Virus record (IMG/VR): IMGVR_UViG_3300038443_000660
Location: 66,082 to 130,081 of that record
Source: a virus
Lineage: Duplodnaviria; Heunggongvirae; Uroviricota; Caudoviricetes
Strand: one strand, 5' to 3'
Length of the DNA stretch: 64,000 nt
The notes beneath the pieces are model-generated. The model ran no database searches. It was not told where the DNA came from and saw nothing but the letters and a program-made list of their open reading frames with translations. Positions 673 through 58,671 of the stretch are shown piece after piece (within the stretch, counting starts at the first letter, position 1; each line of letters opens with the position of its first letter). The translations under genes were made by a program, and so were the position numbers.

Positions 673-947
673 TTGTTTCCGTAAATTTGATTATTAAAAT
701 ATTCCACGATTTCAGGAGAAGCGGTTATCAGAACGAACTCGATATCAGTTAAACCCAATTCATCATCAGTCGATAGTTCTTCTTTGAGTAGTTCTTTTTC
801 TATCTCTATTTGGTTATCGTCCAAAACAACGTCATAGCCAACGAAATGCAAAATTTCAGTCAAAGCAATGTCATAGCCCACGAAATGCAAAATTTCAGCG
901 GTGTTATTTGGATTAACAGCAATTATTCCGGTTAAAAATTTATTCAT
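663..947 (-). CDS. hypothetical protein with internal tandem duplication
   Basis: 94 aa ORF; EILHFVGYD is repeated because of a ~39 bp direct DNA repeat at 841-900. Confidence 0.35.
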   Translation of the reverse strand: MNKFLTGIIAVNPNNTAEILHFVGYDIALTEILHFVGYDVVLDDNQIEIEKELLKEELSTDDELGLTDIEFVLITASPEIVEYFNNQIYGNNCQ

Positions 948-2096: not shown

Positions 2097-2279
2097 CCTC
2101 TATTCAACTAATGTGTTTGTATTTCATAGATAATATATTGTCAAGACCTTTTATATAAAAAAGAGTAGTGGTTATCCACTACTCTTTCTTCATACGCTCT
2201 TGATGCGTCCATCGTTATCCCAATCTCATTGCAAGCGGTCGCCCCATGTATTGAGTGTGCCGAAGATTGAGCGTATTAT

Positions 2280-2480
2280 CTTTCAAAACCGTTTTCTAAT
2301 TCATACAATCTATCTAATTAACCTAAATGTTCTTAGCTAACCGAAACCGTTTACAAACATTTTAATCATCCTACCGTTTTCTAATTCATACAATCTATCT
2401 AATTAAAAACTAAATGTTCTTAGCTAAAGGAAATCATTCACGAACATTTATCTAATTCCTACTTTTCAAACATAATCTAT
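2280..2480. repeat. iteron-like direct repeats (2 full ~55 bp copies plus a partial third)
   Basis: accgttttctaattcatacaatctatctaatta..taaatgttcttagctaa occurs at ~2289-2340 and ~2374-2428; a related tctaattcctac...aatctatcaatctaa lies at ~2450-2478; the region has no long ORF. Confidence 0.6.
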
Positions 2481-2566
2481 CAATCTAACACACTAGAAAG
2501 AGGAACGGGTTACATGACTTTATCTCCTGTCTGTTTCACTCAATCTCAACTCAACCCTACATTTAT

Positions 2567-2595
2567 TAATATAATCGGATTCTATAGAATGTCAA
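2567..2595 (-). promoter_or_regulatory. sigma70-like promoter (TTGACA-N17-ATATTA) firing leftward into the repeat block
   Basis: Minus strand reads TTGACATTCTATAGAATCCGATTATATTA; it belongs to the conserved promoter family. Confidence 0.5.
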
Positions 2596-2605
2596 CACCT
2601 ATTTT

Positions 2606-3779: not shown

Positions 3780-3848
3780 GGTTGCATCTTCATTTTTGAT
3801 AAATAAGACAGAGTATATAACATTTTCCTAGAAAGTTCAATAATAAAA

Positions 3849-5717
3849 ATGTCATTTAAGCATTTCATTACCGAAGCCTCTTTTAATTCCAAAGATGTTC
3901 CAGAAGTAATCAAAAAGGTTTCAAATATCGTATCAGATAAGCTTGGCAAGAAGTTGTATCCATACAATCAAACCGGTTATCAGGAATTGATGTCTGGTGG
4001 AAAAACATATCAATGTTATTTATTCTTCATGGACGACTGTAAAGCAGTAAGATTTAACACAATTAATGGAACTTTTGATTCTATTGAAATCTGGAATAAG
4101 TATAAAACGAATGGTATCGATGAACCGAAATCAGATTTCACTATCCGCCTAGATGGAATGAATATTCTAAAGGTTATTGATTCGCTTGTCAACGTGATTA
4201 AGAAGCCACGAGAAGGAACATATCGCATCAACGTAAACGAAGATTCTGACCAAAATAAGCAGATGATTTTTGAATCAAATGCTGCCGAAGAAGCCGCTAG
4301 ACTTGGATTGCAAAATCTTGGTTATGGTCGATATGGTCGTGAGATTGACGGCGAGATGGTTCAAACACATAGAGTTGATAAGTTGCGTGATCGATTGGTC
4401 GATTTTCAACCTACAGCACCAGAATCCAGAAAGAAGCAAGTCAAAGACCCTCATGACTGGCACATGATGGCAATTAAAACATTTGGTGATACCAAAAATC
4501 TTTCAAGATTATCGTGGTCCGATGTTGAAATCATTGCTGCCAAAAATGGCGTCACTATTCCCGGTTGGGTTAGAGCATCCGGTGTAGGCAAGGGGAAGAA
4601 CAAGACATTTTCTTCTGTTCCATCAGCGCATCTTACGCAACCCGCCGAAACCATGCAGCAGGCCGGTGAACATAAAGGCGTTCAATATTTTGCGAAAATA
4701 TCGCCTCGTGATCCTATCACCAATAAATTTACTTCTGTCAAAGATGATGAATACGCTCAACGCTTGACGAAAATGATGGATGCAGCCCTGAATGCCCCGT
4801 CACACGATGTGATTGAAAAAGAAATGGTCGATCCAGATACACTTTTTGGTAGAATGTCTGACCTAATTAAACTTATCGTCAAAGGCGTTTCTCCATCGTT
4901 GTTCATTTATGGTGGTCCCGGTATTGGTAAAACATTCATTGTTAACAAAACATTGAAAGAAGCTGGTTTGAAAAAGAATCAGGATTACTACATCGTTAAG
5001 GGTAAAATCACACCAACAGCCCTTTATCAAACTCTTTATACCCATAGAAATGGTAATACTATGTTGGTGTTTGACGATGCCGACTCCGCATTTAGAACAG
5101 AAGATTCAGCAAATATTTTGAAAGCCGCTCTTGATTCGTATGAAGAAAGAGAAATTTCATATTCATCCGCCAGAACCATTAACGTAGATAAGTGGTCTGA
5201 TGAAAAACGTGAAGCATATGAAGCTAAACTAGATAAGCATTTGTTGTCTATCGGTGATGACGATGACGATGACGATCTTGAAGACGATGACGATTTTGGT
5301 GCCGATGACAATGCGGCCTTTCCCGGCAATGGTCGTGGTATGAATAAAGGTGAAAAAAAGAAAAAGAAAAAAGAAGAAAAGATAACCAAACTTCCTTCAA
5401 AATTCAAATTCGATGGAAAAATCATCTTCATTTCAAACTTGGCTAGGGACCAAGTTGACGACGCTGTTCTTTCTCGTTCATATAAGATTGATATGGAAAT
5501 GACGGCTGAACAACGCTTCAAGCGCATGGAAAGCATTCTGCCGTATGTTGTACCAGAAGTTGAAGATACAGAGTTGAAAAAGCGTGTCATGGAAGCAATC
5601 AAAGTTAACCACAAGCTTGGTAAACTTGACCTTCCATCCATGAGAATGTTTGAATCTGGTATTAAAGTTGCAGCTTCTGGTTTACCTAACTGGAAGGAAC
5701 TATTAGATTATATCTAA
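3849..5717 (+). CDS. AAA+ ATPase with ~300-aa N-terminal domain of unknown function and poly-Asp/poly-Lys linker
   Basis: Walker A GGPGIGKT, Walker B MLVFDDAD and sensor region AVLSRSYKID; DDDDDDDLEDDDD then KKKKKKEEK; one of only two plus-strand genes. Confidence 0.75.
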   Translation: MSFKHFITEASFNSKDVPEVIKKVSNIVSDKLGKKLYPYNQTGYQELMSGGKTYQCYLFFMDDCKAVRFNTINGTFDSIEIWNKYKTNGIDEPKSDFTIRLDGMNILKVIDSLVNVIKKPREGTYRINVNEDSDQNKQMIFESNAAEEAARLGLQNLGYGRYGREIDGEMVQTHRVDKLRDRLVDFQPTAPESRKKQVKDPHDWHMMAIKTFGDTKNLSRLSWSDVEIIAAKNGVTIPGWVRASGVGKGKNKTFSSVPSAHLTQPAETMQQAGEHKGVQYFAKISPRDPITNKFTSVKDDEYAQRLTKMMDAALNAPSHDVIEKEMVDPDTLFGRMSDLIKLIVKGVSPSLFIYGGPGIGKTFIVNKTLKEAGLKKNQDYYIVKGKITPTALYQTLYTHRNGNTMLVFDDADSAFRTEDSANILKAALDSYEEREISYSSARTINVDKWSDEKREAYEAKLDKHLLSIGDDDDDDDLEDDDDFGADDNAAFPGNGRGMNKGEKKKKKKEEKITKLPSKFKFDGKIIFISNLARDQVDDAVLSRSYKIDMEMTAEQRFKRMESILPYVVPEVEDTELKKRVMEAIKVNHKLGKLDLPSMRMFESGIKVAASGLPNWKELLDYI

Positions 5718-5756: not shown

Positions 5757-5860
5757 TGGTAGGGGAAGTCAGACTCGAACTGACAATTGATATGCATATG
5801 CTTAACCGGAACATATCGGCGGCTCTACACCGCTGTGTCTACCAATTTCACCATTCCCCT
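5757..5860 (-). tRNA. class II tRNA, anticodon ambiguous (UAG-Leu or GUA-Tyr), unusually long (~104 nt)
   Basis: Acceptor AGGGGAA/TTCCCCT with CCA, 3-bp D stem, T-loop TTCGAGT; anticodon loop TGTAGAG has G at position 33; variable region ~35 nt. Confidence 0.45.
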
Positions 5861-26545: not shown

Positions 26546-26777
26546 AGAAGCGTGTGTTTTTCTGGAATTTCGTAATATTTCATTGAATTATTATATTCCA
26601 ATATCAGCCAACGTTAAAATGGGCGTCGAACCCATGTTTCCAGTTATCCAACCGGTGTCCTATCCACCTAGACGATTTAACTCAATGCAATCTTAGATCG
26701 GCAAATCCATTTCATGCATCGTGGCGACTGAACTATTTAAACATTGCCGTGTAGAAATAGTTCAATTCTGTTGTTGT

Positions 26778-47941: not shown

Positions 47942-48430
47942 AAACTATTACCTATTATCCCTGTATTCTGACCAATTTACCATCAACAATCTTGAACGTA
48001 TTTGGGAAGAAATGTTGAAGTACGGCAGTTTCAGCCGAAAACGTATCTTCGAATTTCATGACTTGTTGTTTAAGGCCGGTATCGAGGGAATTCGATAGTG
48101 TTTTCATATCAGTTACTCTTTAGTTTCAATTTGGTTGGAATGCCACTCCCATTCCTAGATAATACTTCGTCCTTATGACGTGACCTTATCTCTGGTGCCA
48201 GCATGGACTCGAATACCTTCCGGTATACCTGATATTTATACACCATGGAGCGTAAGCATGGTGTTTATATGGACACGGAACCGCTTTTTGTAGAATTCTA
48301 CCTATCAACCACGACCTTGTTGCAACTAAAGGCTAGTCCATATTCTCGATTAAAACCAGATTAGCCGTATCGAACGGCTTTTTGGCCGATCAACCAAACG
48401 CAATCACACTCATCGAGGTTTAATCAATTG
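47942..48430. other. ORF-poor structured region (candidate ncRNA) ending in a plus-strand hairpin plus T-run
   Basis: No ORF over 76 aa; local hairpins (ccatgg-agcgtaag-catgg); agccgt-atcga-acggct plus ttttt at 48363-48383. Confidence 0.3.
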
Positions 48431-56585: not shown

Positions 56586-57425
56586 ATTATAAATTTCAAA
56601 GATATAAGTGAAACGTTGAGATTTAAGTTTCGCCACGGCCTTTCAGGACATTATAGGTTTGTTGCGCAAACCCTTCTTCCCTTATCCACCACCTTTTGAG
56701 TGGTATCCGCTAGGAATTTTTTGTATTCGACATCCACGATTTACTCGGCAACTTCTACATTAAATAGACCGGCCAAAGTCCACCTAATATTTCCCTTACC
56801 AAATTCCAACTACCTTGCGGGTAATCAGAACACCATATTCTGTTTCCAGTATGGTATTAATTCCCTTCATCGTGAACCGGAACAGACTTTGCTTTTTTAT
56901 AATAGACATTGGAATTGAACCAATATTCTATCGCTCCAAATGCGATTGCCTTACCATTCGGCTAGTCTGTAACCCACCAAGACGTGCTGTTCCAGTTGTT
57001 CCATAAACTTTTGGTCTACAGAATGCAACACGCCTCATATTTTCGACTTGCGGTCTACTCATGATCTTTCAAGAATCAGTTACCTTGCGGTCCCAAATCC
57101 TATCAGAATGACATTCGCCCTTGTCTGCTAAACTCGGACTAAAAATGCCCCAAAACGTTAGCTATCAACCATGGATAAGTTTTGCGTGGTATAAGATGCT
57201 TGCGGCATCGATTTCGGTCCAGTGTTACCCAACCTAATCTTTTTCTACCCTTATCGTCCGATCTATTTCCAACCTTGCGATTGAAACCATGCCTAAGTCT
57301 ATCAAACTCGTGCATGAAGCCCGTTCGCCGTATGCAACCTCTATTTCTAGAGTCGATAGAAACATGGGATTTCTATCTGTCAGAGTGTTACCACTCCTAT
57401 CATCACACGGAAAAATTCCTTGGTA
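56586..57425 (-). ncRNA. candidate large structured non-coding RNA (~0.85 kb, unclassified)
   Basis: No ORF over 85 aa; GC-richer than the backbone; at least five CCGCAAGG-type hairpins with GCAA (GNRA) loops on the minus strand; terminator at the 3' side. Confidence 0.35.
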
Positions 57426-57956: not shown

Positions 57957-58152
57957 TTCATTATCTTTTTCATATCTAGGAGTGGTGTCTTAAAAAGCTG
58001 ACAGACTCTCTTATTAGACGACTGCATAAGCAGAATGGACTTTACACCATCATTGCCACTTATTTCTTTAACGATTGTTCAAGAAAACAGTTTATTTTGA
58101 ACTATTTGCTTCAACAATCAGTATTCATTTAATATAGTTTATTTAGTTCCCT

Positions 58153-58450
58153 TTGTCAACAAGAAAATTTAAAATTTTCCAACTATTTTCATTTTTTTCA
58201 ACTTTTTTCGTTGGTATTGGGAGAATGGACAGGCTCTAGAAACCCATGCTTTCGACTTCCCATATTGTGCAAGTTTTTTAACCTTTTCCATTTAGATGGT
58301 TAGCAGGCCATCTATCGAAAGAAAAGCTGTGAATTGCTAGTCCACCACTTGCACCCAAGTTATGTTGTTGTTGACACTACCCTATTCTTTTTCGTGTGTC
58401 AACAAGGAAATTCAAAATTTTCTAACTATTTTCACTTTTTCTCTAGAATT
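58153..58450. repeat. two ~53 bp direct repeats (tgtcaacaag-aaaattyaaaattttcyaactattttcay-ttttt)
   Basis: Copies at ~58153-58205 and ~58388-58440; related ttttcactttttctctagaa again at 58751-58770. Confidence 0.55.
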
Positions 58451-58671
58451 TCGATTTCAGCGAAAGAAAGACGAACAATCGGCTTTCCATAGTCATTTGT
58501 CTCACGCTTCTTGAAGGTAACTTTGTAACGATTACCCTCCATCTTTTCCATGGAAGCGTAAATGGTCCTCGTGCCAGCAGTCATGGACTTATTGTCCACC
58601 ATCCACTGAATGATTTCACGCTGTCTAGCAGTCACATGACGGGCAGCTACAATCTTGTACGAAGCAGACAT
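58432..58671 (-). CDS. hypothetical protein
   Basis: 79 aa ORF. Confidence 0.35.
   Translation of the reverse strand: MSASYKIVAARHVTARQREIIQWMVDNKSMTAGTRTIYASMEKMEGNRYKVTFKKRETNDYGKPIVRLSFAEIEILEKK

Follow-up and report, generated by a model that had tools for sequence, protein, structure and literature searches.

What is encoded in a long stretch of a large phage's DNA that appears to hold no gene? Here we report the analysis of such a stretch in a window of 64,000 nucleotides (positions 66,082 to 130,081 of the IMG/VR virus record IMGVR_UViG_3300038443_000660, Caudoviricetes; all coordinates below are those of the window), which belongs to a 242-kb phage-like metagenomic contig (identical locus, L001). 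The stretch consists of the 509 bp that separate a 190/202-aa gene, with its stop at 2606, from a 254-aa gene that starts at 2096. It is without an open reading frame (ORF) of at least 60 codons on both strands and is the longest such gap in the window. An initial annotation had regarded it as an ORF-free block with iteron-like repeats; this is true at a threshold of at least 25 codons, for which the minus strand from 2133 to 2592 has zero ORFs, but not below it, where conserved minus-strand micro-ORFs preceded by a Shine-Dalgarno (SD) sequence lie inside. Anatomy, synteny, peptide-level conservation and the variable copy number of these micro-ORFs were computed. The results indicate that the repeats are very probably a tandem duplication of a cassette, composed of an SD and a seven-codon ORF, that lies inside a transcribed unit and is under peptide-level selection. 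We also consider the chances slightly better than even that the block encodes a leader or minigene RNA that is translated, in which the nascent peptide is important and which is conserved in a clade of large phages.

The micro-ORFs were found by listing the small ORFs on the transcribed strand; an element of this size is below the reach of any gene caller and was recognised only via the comparison of lineages. The window contains two seven-codon cassettes and a start codon directly followed by a stop:

2460-2424, minus strand: cassette A, with the SD AGGAAT (2460-2455), a spacer of 7 nt and ATG TTC GTG AAT GAT TTC CTT TAG, encoding MFVNDFL (2447-2424)
2372-2337, minus strand: cassette B, with the SD AGGAT (2372-2368), a spacer of 7 nt and ATG TTT GTA AAC GGT TTC GGT TAG, encoding MFVNGFG (2360-2337)
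2528-2510, minus strand: start-stop, with the SD AGGAG (2528-2524) and then ATG-TAA (2515-2510)

DNA similarity searches against 50,697 phage records, in near and distant modes, yielded no match, and no cultured phage matched at the DNA level. Related metagenomic contigs were reached via the two flanking proteins and one DNA pattern, and represent, together with the window, 11 lineages (window, L004, L183, L179, L182, L181, L184, L189, L007, L191 and L188). All 11 share the order of an AAA+ gene on the opposite strand, an HNH gene, a 180-200-aa gene and a long intergenic unit, which in each case opens with an equivalent promoter and a TGTAGG start region. An ORF of the M-F-V-N-x-F-x type, with an SD-like purine run 5-12 nt upstream, is present at the same syntenic place in 10 of the 11 lineages. 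The peptides encoded in the relatives, each ending at a stop codon, are:

L004: MFVNGFL, one copy
L179: MFVNGFT and MFVNGFD, 123 nt apart
L181, L184 and L189: MFVNGFT
L182: MFVNRFT
L183: MFVNGFD
L007: MFSNWFALN
L191: MFVNWFGLN, plus a second small ORF 107 nt upstream
L188: MFRVIKI, a different seven-codon ORF

The SD with ATG-TAA is also present in L004 and L183, and L007 and L182 have SD-preceded two-codon ORFs instead (ATG-CTC-TAA and ATG-GAC-TAA).

The codon statistics refer to ten seven-codon cassettes with seven distinct sequences (four lineages share an identical ORF). ATG and TAG are invariant in all ten, as is the stop context UAG-C. Variation in codons 2, 3, 4 and 6 is confined to third positions and is synonymous throughout (chance 1/495), codons 5 and 7 are unconstrained, and the flanks vary in 30/30 upstream and 34/36 downstream columns. 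Between L007 and L191, the stop codon differs (TAA vs TGA) and is still a stop. The five alternative frames contain stops in several lineages each, and none is open across lineages; antisense coding was therefore rejected as the cause of the conservation. This combination of variation restricted to third positions, a fixed start and stop, variable flanks and closed alternative frames points to selection on the peptide and not on a DNA site or an RNA motif.

The 18-nt pattern ATGTTY-NNN-AAY-NNN-TTY, which is present in 10/11 lineages, was reached by 1-20 of 20,000 shuffles per transcript, and its only two occurrences in the 64-kb window are the two repeat copies. A stricter 26-nt version (Val and Gly fixed, TAGCT added) was found in only 4 contigs of the whole of IMG/VR, each of which is syntenic. 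A degenerate 19-mer had 11 matches in IMG/VR, which were judged to be due to chance (unrelated contexts, without SD), and a 34-nt pattern (ORF and GTAAC) had no match across 185,579 bacterial and archaeal genomes.

The two cassettes of the window are part of a tandem repeat array:

2288-2489, no strand: tandem repeat array, with unit 1 at 2288-2372, unit 2 at 2373-2459 and a partial unit 3 at 2462-2489

The initial annotation had described direct repeats of 55 bp with a diverged third copy and an internally symmetric core. A tandem repeat was indeed detected by TRF (2288-2449, period 87, 1.9 copies, 88% matches, score 259), but the unit measures 85-87 bp and includes the presumed spacer, which is also repeated (84% identity); on this ground, a CRISPR array or solitary repeat unit, with its 'spacer' between the 34-nt blocks, was rejected. 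An exact 34-nt repeat (2288-2321 and 2373-2406) and an exact 18-nt repeat (2323-2340 and 2410-2427) are offset by 85 and 87 bp, respectively, and both blocks are absent elsewhere in the 64-kb window (0 expected by chance). The third copy does exist as a match at 2462-2489, but it is gapped and partial and was equalled in 26 of 2000 shuffles; the copies total approximately 2.4 units. The symmetry of the core did not withstand inspection: it contains the direct 7-mer TCTAATT twice and, in one copy only, an imperfect inverted repeat, and is not truly palindromic.

As transcript, each full unit comprises the SD and micro-ORF hairpin, followed by an AU-rich hairpin. The copies differ at 6/18 positions in codons 2-7 (2337-2360 vs 2424-2447) and at 2/55 positions in the flanks (Fisher p = 0.002), and 3 of the 6 differences within the ORF are synonymous. 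The first 17 nt of the cassette B ORF are identical to the single copy of L004, whereas it is cassette A, not B, that occupies the position aligning with that copy; partial gene conversion between the copies could be the source of the ORF-concentrated differences. A comparison of repeat number with related phages, which the initial annotation had suggested, revealed that it is not conserved: most relatives have one copy, and more than one cassette is present in the window, L179 and L191. Because the second cassettes in L179 and L191 have other spacings and L004 has only one, copy number is, on the available sequences, labile; conservation does not extend to the repeat as such.

The cassettes lie within a predicted transcription unit, which is delimited by the following features:

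2595-2568, minus strand: promoter P1, with TTGACA (2595-2590), a 16-nt spacer and TATATT (2573-2568); 11/12 consensus bases by scan
2579-2590, no strand: perfect 12-bp palindrome ATTCTATAGAAT in the spacer of P1
2191-2287, minus strand: 3' RNA segment of higher G+C, not conserved in relatives; fold z = -0.88, not significant
2190-2151, minus strand: terminator-like hairpin, with the 12-bp stem GAGUAGUGG-AUAA-CCACUACUC, then UUUUUU; -21.6 kcal/mol, z = -7.59
2144-2116, minus strand: possible promoter P2, with TTGACA (2144-2139), 17 nt and a weak -10 TACAAA (2121-2116); read from the sequence

The leftward promoter that the initial annotation had placed at 2567-2595 was confirmed as P1 (TTGACA-16-TATATT), and the next long minus-strand ORF begins at 2096, as stated there, with the SD GAGGA preceding its ATG. 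Transcription from P1 would not lead directly into this gene, as the 12-bp hairpin and U6 (2190-2151) intervene and are followed by a further -35 element (TTGACA, 2144-2139). P1 is located directly 3' of the 190/202-aa gene and is one of a family of TTGACA-16-TAWTAT promoters on the minus strand of the window, which are nearly identical and usually lie ~25-30 nt before a start codon. Transcription from P1 would start near 2561, within the conserved TGTAGG motif, and the predicted RNA from P1 to the hairpin and U6 has a length of ~410 nt without an ORF of at least 25 codons. These computed signals (promoter, ORF-poor stretch, hairpin and U-run) suggest that the block is probably a free-standing minus-strand transcription unit that is driven by the host RNA polymerase and expressed early. 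The consensus terminator scan did not call the hairpin at 2190-2151, probably because an upstream A-run can pair with the U-run. P2, which precedes the SD GAGGA and the ATG at 2096, was not listed by the promoter scan.

The C content is 6.5-7.7% in the 5' part and the repeats and 11.2% in the whole transcript, compared with 17.4% in this strand of the window; given what is generally known of Rho loading sites, such a composition would fit the avoidance of Rho on a largely untranslated RNA. The 12-bp palindrome ATTCTATAGAAT looks like an operator. The related motif TTCYATRGAA occurs 5 times in the window (0.61 expected), at 2580-2589, 2770-2779 and 2882-2891, which cluster within 312 bp (2580-2891), and also at 58546 and 62364. 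The copy in the P1 spacer is kept in L004 and the two copies inside the upstream gene are not; the motif may serve as the operator for some regulator.

A GC-rich hairpin closes the unit in most lineages, and a second promoter often comes after it. Terminal hairpins equivalent to that of the window are present in L007, L179, L181, L182, L184, L188, L189 and L191; P2 is strong in L007, L179, L181, L184, L188 and L189 and absent in L004 and L183. The RNA body between these signals has a length of 220-880 nt and is mostly unalignable across lineages, that of L007 not at all. When the window is compared with L004, its nearest relative, 55/60 positions are identical in the stretch formed by the promoter and the initial 13 transcribed nucleotides, and the rest of the RNA body is ~50-65% identical (47% and 67% at third codon positions in the two flanking genes). 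When the intergenic RNAs of the window, L004 and L007 were searched against 167 loci with nhmmer, only identical or nearest relatives were matched; the 3' segment 2191-2287 matched none beyond the identical contigs. In IMG/VR, neither the exact core of the repeat nor the conserved 5' end of the RNA was found. The gene that follows the unit varies by lineage and encodes either a member of the 254-273-aa family or a protein of ~105 aa or ~123 aa. Caulobacter Bertelyvirus phages, which are the best cultured relatives (190-aa protein 37% identity), are without the intergenic unit at this place, and distant relatives in IMG/VR (at most 40% identity) have neither promoter nor micro-ORF and pack their genes tightly.

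A separate promoter-to-hairpin unit that recurs syntenically in 11 lineages is in agreement with the template of a small RNA, the only option in the initial annotation that fits. A plus-strand ORF of 32 aa with a strong SD, also named there, does exist at 2514-2612, but in the closest relative the corresponding ORF starts with GTG, and the conserved nucleotides are in a different frame.

The longer RNA forms share a 3' domain directly before the terminator (AAUCCGAGYGCYGA...AGCRGCUWCGUGGC-NNN-GCCAGAAAGGG), which the RNA of the window does not have. It is located at 4840-4965 in L007, 3485-3612 in L191, 3262-3388 in L188, 3940-4100 in L182 and 4290-4500 in L181, and is also present in L184 and L189. 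Its stem GCYG/CRGC covaries (CG in 4, UA in 3), spanning insertions of up to ~65 nt.

Folding of the predicted transcript placed both micro-ORFs of the window in hairpins and assigned a partner to the first SD:

2449-2412, minus strand: hairpin A, in which AAAUGUUC (2449-2442) pairs with GAACAUUU (2419-2412); encloses the ORF and sequesters the AUG (predicted fold)
2362-2325, minus strand: hairpin B, in which AAAUGUUU (2362-2355) pairs with GAACAUUU (2332-2325) (predicted fold)
2505-2495, minus strand: pyrimidine stretch UUCCUCUUUCU, 5 nt after the start-stop

Between hairpins A and B, a C-to-U change keeps the pair as G-U. The GAACAU partner of AUGUUC is located downstream in the window and upstream in L181, L184 and L189 (predicted folds), so lineages seem to differ in how the start codon is masked. 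L179, L181 and L182 have a two-tier hairpin after the stop, the inner stem of which covaries (CAGGC/GCCUG vs CUC/GAG); in L184 and L189, the CUC/GAG arms are present, yet the minimum-energy folds are without the hairpin, and the window has an AU-rich hairpin in the same place. In the minimum-energy fold of 2457-2561, UUCCUCUUUCU pairs with the region of the first-cassette SD (...GAAAAGUAGGA), and in the fold of L004 the equivalent AUCGCUU pairs with AAGGUGAU; the paired sequences differ from those of the window. The pyrimidine stretch at 2495-2505 could thus be an anti-SD for the first micro-ORF, and the arrangement suggests that a ribosome on the start-stop would unmask the cassette.

The transcript combines anatomical features of a minigene, with an SD, a start codon, a very short ORF and a stop downstream of an 11/12 promoter, and of a leader, with short ORFs (2447-2424 and 2360-2337; translation predicted) followed by the hairpin and U6 (2190-2151) and the gene at 2096. 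From this arrangement we infer transcription, translation, unmasking of the SD, ribosome pausing and a regulatory output, which could be connected as follows. A ribosome would load on the exposed 5' SD and the AUG-UAA start-stop, where its footprint would cover the pyrimidine anti-SD and free the SD of the first cassette, so that the heptapeptide could be synthesised. The nascent M-F-V-N-x-F-x chain, together with the invariant UAG-C stop, would then stall or slow the ribosome and cause the downstream RNA to be remodelled. The output might be the control of terminator read-through into the next gene, of RNA lifetime, or of both.

That the RNA acts in cis as a regulatory leader is a serious possibility, to which we give a little less than an even chance. 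L004 and L183 have neither a second promoter nor a U-run after the hairpin, and the downstream gene is therefore likely to be read from P1 through the RNA; the weak -10 of P2 in the window also favours a cis role. We advance more tentatively, and with appreciable doubt, the specific proposal that the unit defines an undescribed family of early RNAs in jumbo phages, built around M-F-V-N-x-F-x-UAG, whose nascent chain stalls or slows the ribosome at a stop codon dependent on release factor 1 (RF1).

Several points weigh against a translated RNA whose nascent peptide matters. All evidence for it is computed. An ORF of seven codons offers few informative sites, the statistics are based on seven distinct sequences, and L188 carries a different ORF. 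The distance from micro-ORF to terminator is long and variable (~50-500 nt), the good second promoter after the terminator in most lineages fits an independent RNA at least equally well, and a single regulated target is not evident because the following gene differs between lineages. The structural evidence is also mixed: the hairpin that sequesters the AUG is weak or absent in L004 and L183, and shuffled sequences fold as well as the repeat units and the 5' part (z -0.8 to +0.8). The fold of the whole transcript has a z of -2.2, mainly from the terminator, and the opposite strand scores equally. No convincing conserved antiterminator pairing was found, and none that overlaps the ORF; a complementarity of 19 nt (74%) between 2495-2513 and a terminator arm is due to low-complexity sequence.

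The main alternative is a minigene RNA that acts in trans, as in lambda bar: an independent early RNA whose strongly translated mini-ORFs, the start-stop and the heptapeptide cassettes, would act on host translation and could tie up ribosomes, RF1 or particular tRNAs via peptidyl-tRNA drop-off. We consider it unlikely, but it draws on much of the same anatomy: the unit has its own promoter and terminator, the next gene has a separate promoter in most lineages and is not constant, and the SD with AUG-UAA or two-codon ORFs resembles the lambda bar minigenes. The presence of more than one cassette in the window, L179 and L191, and the invariance of UAG, which is read only by RF1, in all seven-codon cassettes point in the same direction; in a variant of this explanation, the free heptapeptide itself could be the effector. 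Cassette duplication would raise the dose. Minigenes of 2-8 codons cause peptidyl-tRNA drop-off and tRNA sequestration, but drop-off weakens as they lengthen from 2 to 8 codons (PMC2490762). Moreover, simple tRNA sequestration needs no conservation at the peptide level, an ORF meant for maximal translation would hardly be expected to have its start codon sequestered in a hairpin, and the RNA of L004 and L183 is likely to form the physical leader of the gene that follows. A small RNA without any coding function is improbable; its conserved 24 nt would be an RNA motif (seed or protein-binding site), and ATG, stop and SD-like purines would be there incidentally. It would explain a promoter-to-terminator unit without a long ORF, the longer forms in relatives with a structured 3' domain and one covarying stem, and the partial base pairing of the conserved stretch. 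Variation with a period of 3 nt at synonymous third positions, however, is unexpected for an RNA motif, as are an invariant start and stop eight codons apart with a well-placed SD in every lineage; the stop of L007 and L191 is swapped between TAA and TGA yet stays a stop. Rfam 15, searched at the gathering score and at E up to 10, contains no family that matches the block or the ten related loci (noise only), base-pairing targets within the window were limited to chance matches of 12-15 nt, and CsrA-type GGA motifs were, by eye, no more numerous than base composition predicts.

A neutral spacer, which would be a decayed gene remnant kept for its promoter and carrying a recent and functionless duplication by replication slippage, has a probability marginally lower still. 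The identity of the RNA bodies of the window and L004 is close to that of the flanking third codon positions, L007 is not alignable, promoters of the P1 class normally lie ~25-30 nt before a gene, and the 34-nt repeat blocks are identical and hence recent. Such a spacer is not expected to maintain a seven-codon ORF as a conserved island amid unalignable sequence in 10 lineages, with a stop at the same codon in every seven-codon cassette (not a random truncation), nor to be kept as a long unit in 11/11 lineages when distant relatives pack their genes tightly. The initial annotation had also offered an iteron origin, a partition site or a repeated operator, and a DNA-level element of this kind, including an array of operators for a phage protein, is now very improbable. 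AT-rich direct repeats do adjoin a strong promoter, TCTAATT occurs five times within 2295-2457, one DnaA-box-like 9-mer is present at 2172-2180, and the 622-aa AAA+ protein encoded nearby has a faint Orc1/Cdc6 match (E = 0.002, far below the cut-off). But the array has only ~2.4 copies of its 85-87-bp unit, relatives are mostly single-copy, and what they conserve is a codon-periodic ORF and not a DNA motif. TCTAATT is irregularly spaced (18, 67, 18 and 53 bp) and shows no enrichment across the window (21 vs 17.8 expected), and DnaA-like boxes are not enriched either (31 vs 23.7 expected), the sole local one being the loop of the terminator. Cumulative GC skew shows only the change of gene orientation near 3800, and neither neighbouring protein is Rep-like (no family match; 254-aa model without PDB fold match). 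The least probable explanation is a locus similar to type III toxin-antitoxin systems, with tandem RNA repeats as antitoxin, a terminator and a toxin gene. The order of promoter, tandem repeats, terminator and gene is superficially toxIN-like, but the unit measures 85-87 nt instead of 34-45 nt and is single-copy in relatives, no RNA family matches at E up to 10, and the 254-aa protein has no ToxN-like match (Pfam, PADLOC, NCBIfam, PDB fold). Furthermore, the long upstream gap is not a trait of the 254-aa family (median 0, 113 loci), and the downstream gene differs by lineage.

The 254-aa and 190-aa proteins encoded next to the unit have zero family matches in Pfam, NCBIfam and PADLOC; only the 190/202-aa protein is matched in PHROGs, by families without a replication function. 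The structural model of the 254-aa protein is confident (predicted local distance difference test score, pLDDT, 91) and has no PDB fold match at E <= 0.001. A functional link between the block and the 254-aa gene was considered and rejected, as the protein family is widespread, does not typically have a long upstream gap and is without a family or fold assignment. The divergent 622-aa AAA+ protein (PHROG 1250; 3849-5717, plus strand) has an acidic, lysine-rich low-complexity insert; its match to Orc1/Cdc6 amounts to 17 bits (cut-off 181).

Other parts of the window contain further RNA genes and ORF-poor regions. ARAGORN detected 19 tRNA genes, which all lie on the minus strand, are dispersed as single genes or pairs, and include an odd 'tRNA-???' with a two-base anticodon at 26610-26683. 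Several are located directly 3' of their own TTGACA promoters (e.g. promoter 1081-1053 before tRNA-Met 966-1042). The Rfam list at gathering score comprises 15 tRNA matches; it is without several of the ARAGORN calls (e.g. tRNA-Met 966-1042) and has an extra match at 5760-5860. A GOLLD RNA at 56613-57036 (minus strand; 168.5 bits, gathering score 150) contains a tRNA-Gln at 56899-56972. A second long block without an ORF of at least 60 codons (57957-58431, minus strand) has two orphan TTGACA promoters (58402 and 58159), each 3' of a repeated ~40-nt block (GAAAATAGTTrGAAAATTTTrAATTTyCTTGTTGACA), and may be another small RNA unit. An ORF-free region of 332 nt and higher G+C between tRNA-Ile and tRNA-Ser (48099-48430, minus strand) is structured-looking and without an Rfam match. 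A 39-bp tandem repeat (822-898, minus strand; 2.0 copies, 92%) within the 94-aa ORF 663-947 duplicates the peptide ...EILHFVGYD.... In L191, a class I aminoacyl-tRNA-synthetase-like gene (tRNA-synt_1e, 1555-2499) is located immediately upstream of the 178-aa gene, after which the micro-ORF unit follows.

A link of the micro-ORF unit to translation control is plausible because its carriers are rich in tRNA genes (19 in the window) and some relatives have an aminoacyl-tRNA-synthetase-like gene adjoining the unit. If the proposed RNA family is real, it would represent a new phage arrest peptide or translation sensor that gates early expression by the translation state of the host or disables ribosomes, RF1 or tRNAs, and repeated duplication of the cassette would tune its dose. 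Action of the nascent chain would add a new and very short regulatory or arrest peptide of phage origin; action in trans would provide a natural, conserved case of phage mini-ORFs directed against host translation, as hinted at by the lambda bar minigenes. Leader peptides and minigenes are known in kind; what appears to be new is the heptapeptide family, together with its setting in phages and its repeated duplication, and a literature search for the peptide string MFVNGF, which covered about 8 million papers, found none that contains it.

Among known systems, iteron origins share with the block AT-rich direct repeats in an intergenic position near a promoter, but consist of at least 3 regular direct repeats of ~17-22 bp; the unit here is four times too long and too few in copies, its number varies among relatives, the locus has no Rep gene, and conservation is codon-periodic on the transcribed strand. 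Dual-function small RNAs are likewise stand-alone RNAs with their own promoter and terminator and a small ORF (translation is predicted here). The peptides of SgrS/SgrT, RNAIII/delta-haemolysin and SR1/SR1P, however, comprise 26-43 aa and their RNAs have defined base-pairing seeds, whereas the ORF here has 7 codons and no seed or target is evident.

The leaders that act through a nascent chain (TnaC; cat, cmlA, erm) are more similar. They also have a short, SD-preceded ORF upstream of a terminator and gene, with conservation of the peptide rather than the nucleotides and of the stop and its context, and with RNA hairpins that overlap the start and are also found after the stop. TnaC is described in PMC8429421 as stalling the ribosome at its stop codon and thereby controlling downstream transcription. 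Unlike in these leaders, no conserved choice between a terminator and an antiterminator that overlaps the ORF was found here, the distance to the terminator varies, and most lineages have a second promoter. To our knowledge, the heptapeptide matches no described arrest motif.

The lambda bar minigenes consist of an SD and AUG-AUA-stop behind a strong early promoter. The ORF reported here differs from them in that it has seven codons, is conserved in its amino acids (which bar action does not need) and is embedded in hairpins. Both are encoded by phages and lie in an 'untranslated' early transcript as an SD with an ORF of a few codons, and the SD with the AUG-UAA start-stop in the window and the two-codon versions in its relatives extend this likeness.

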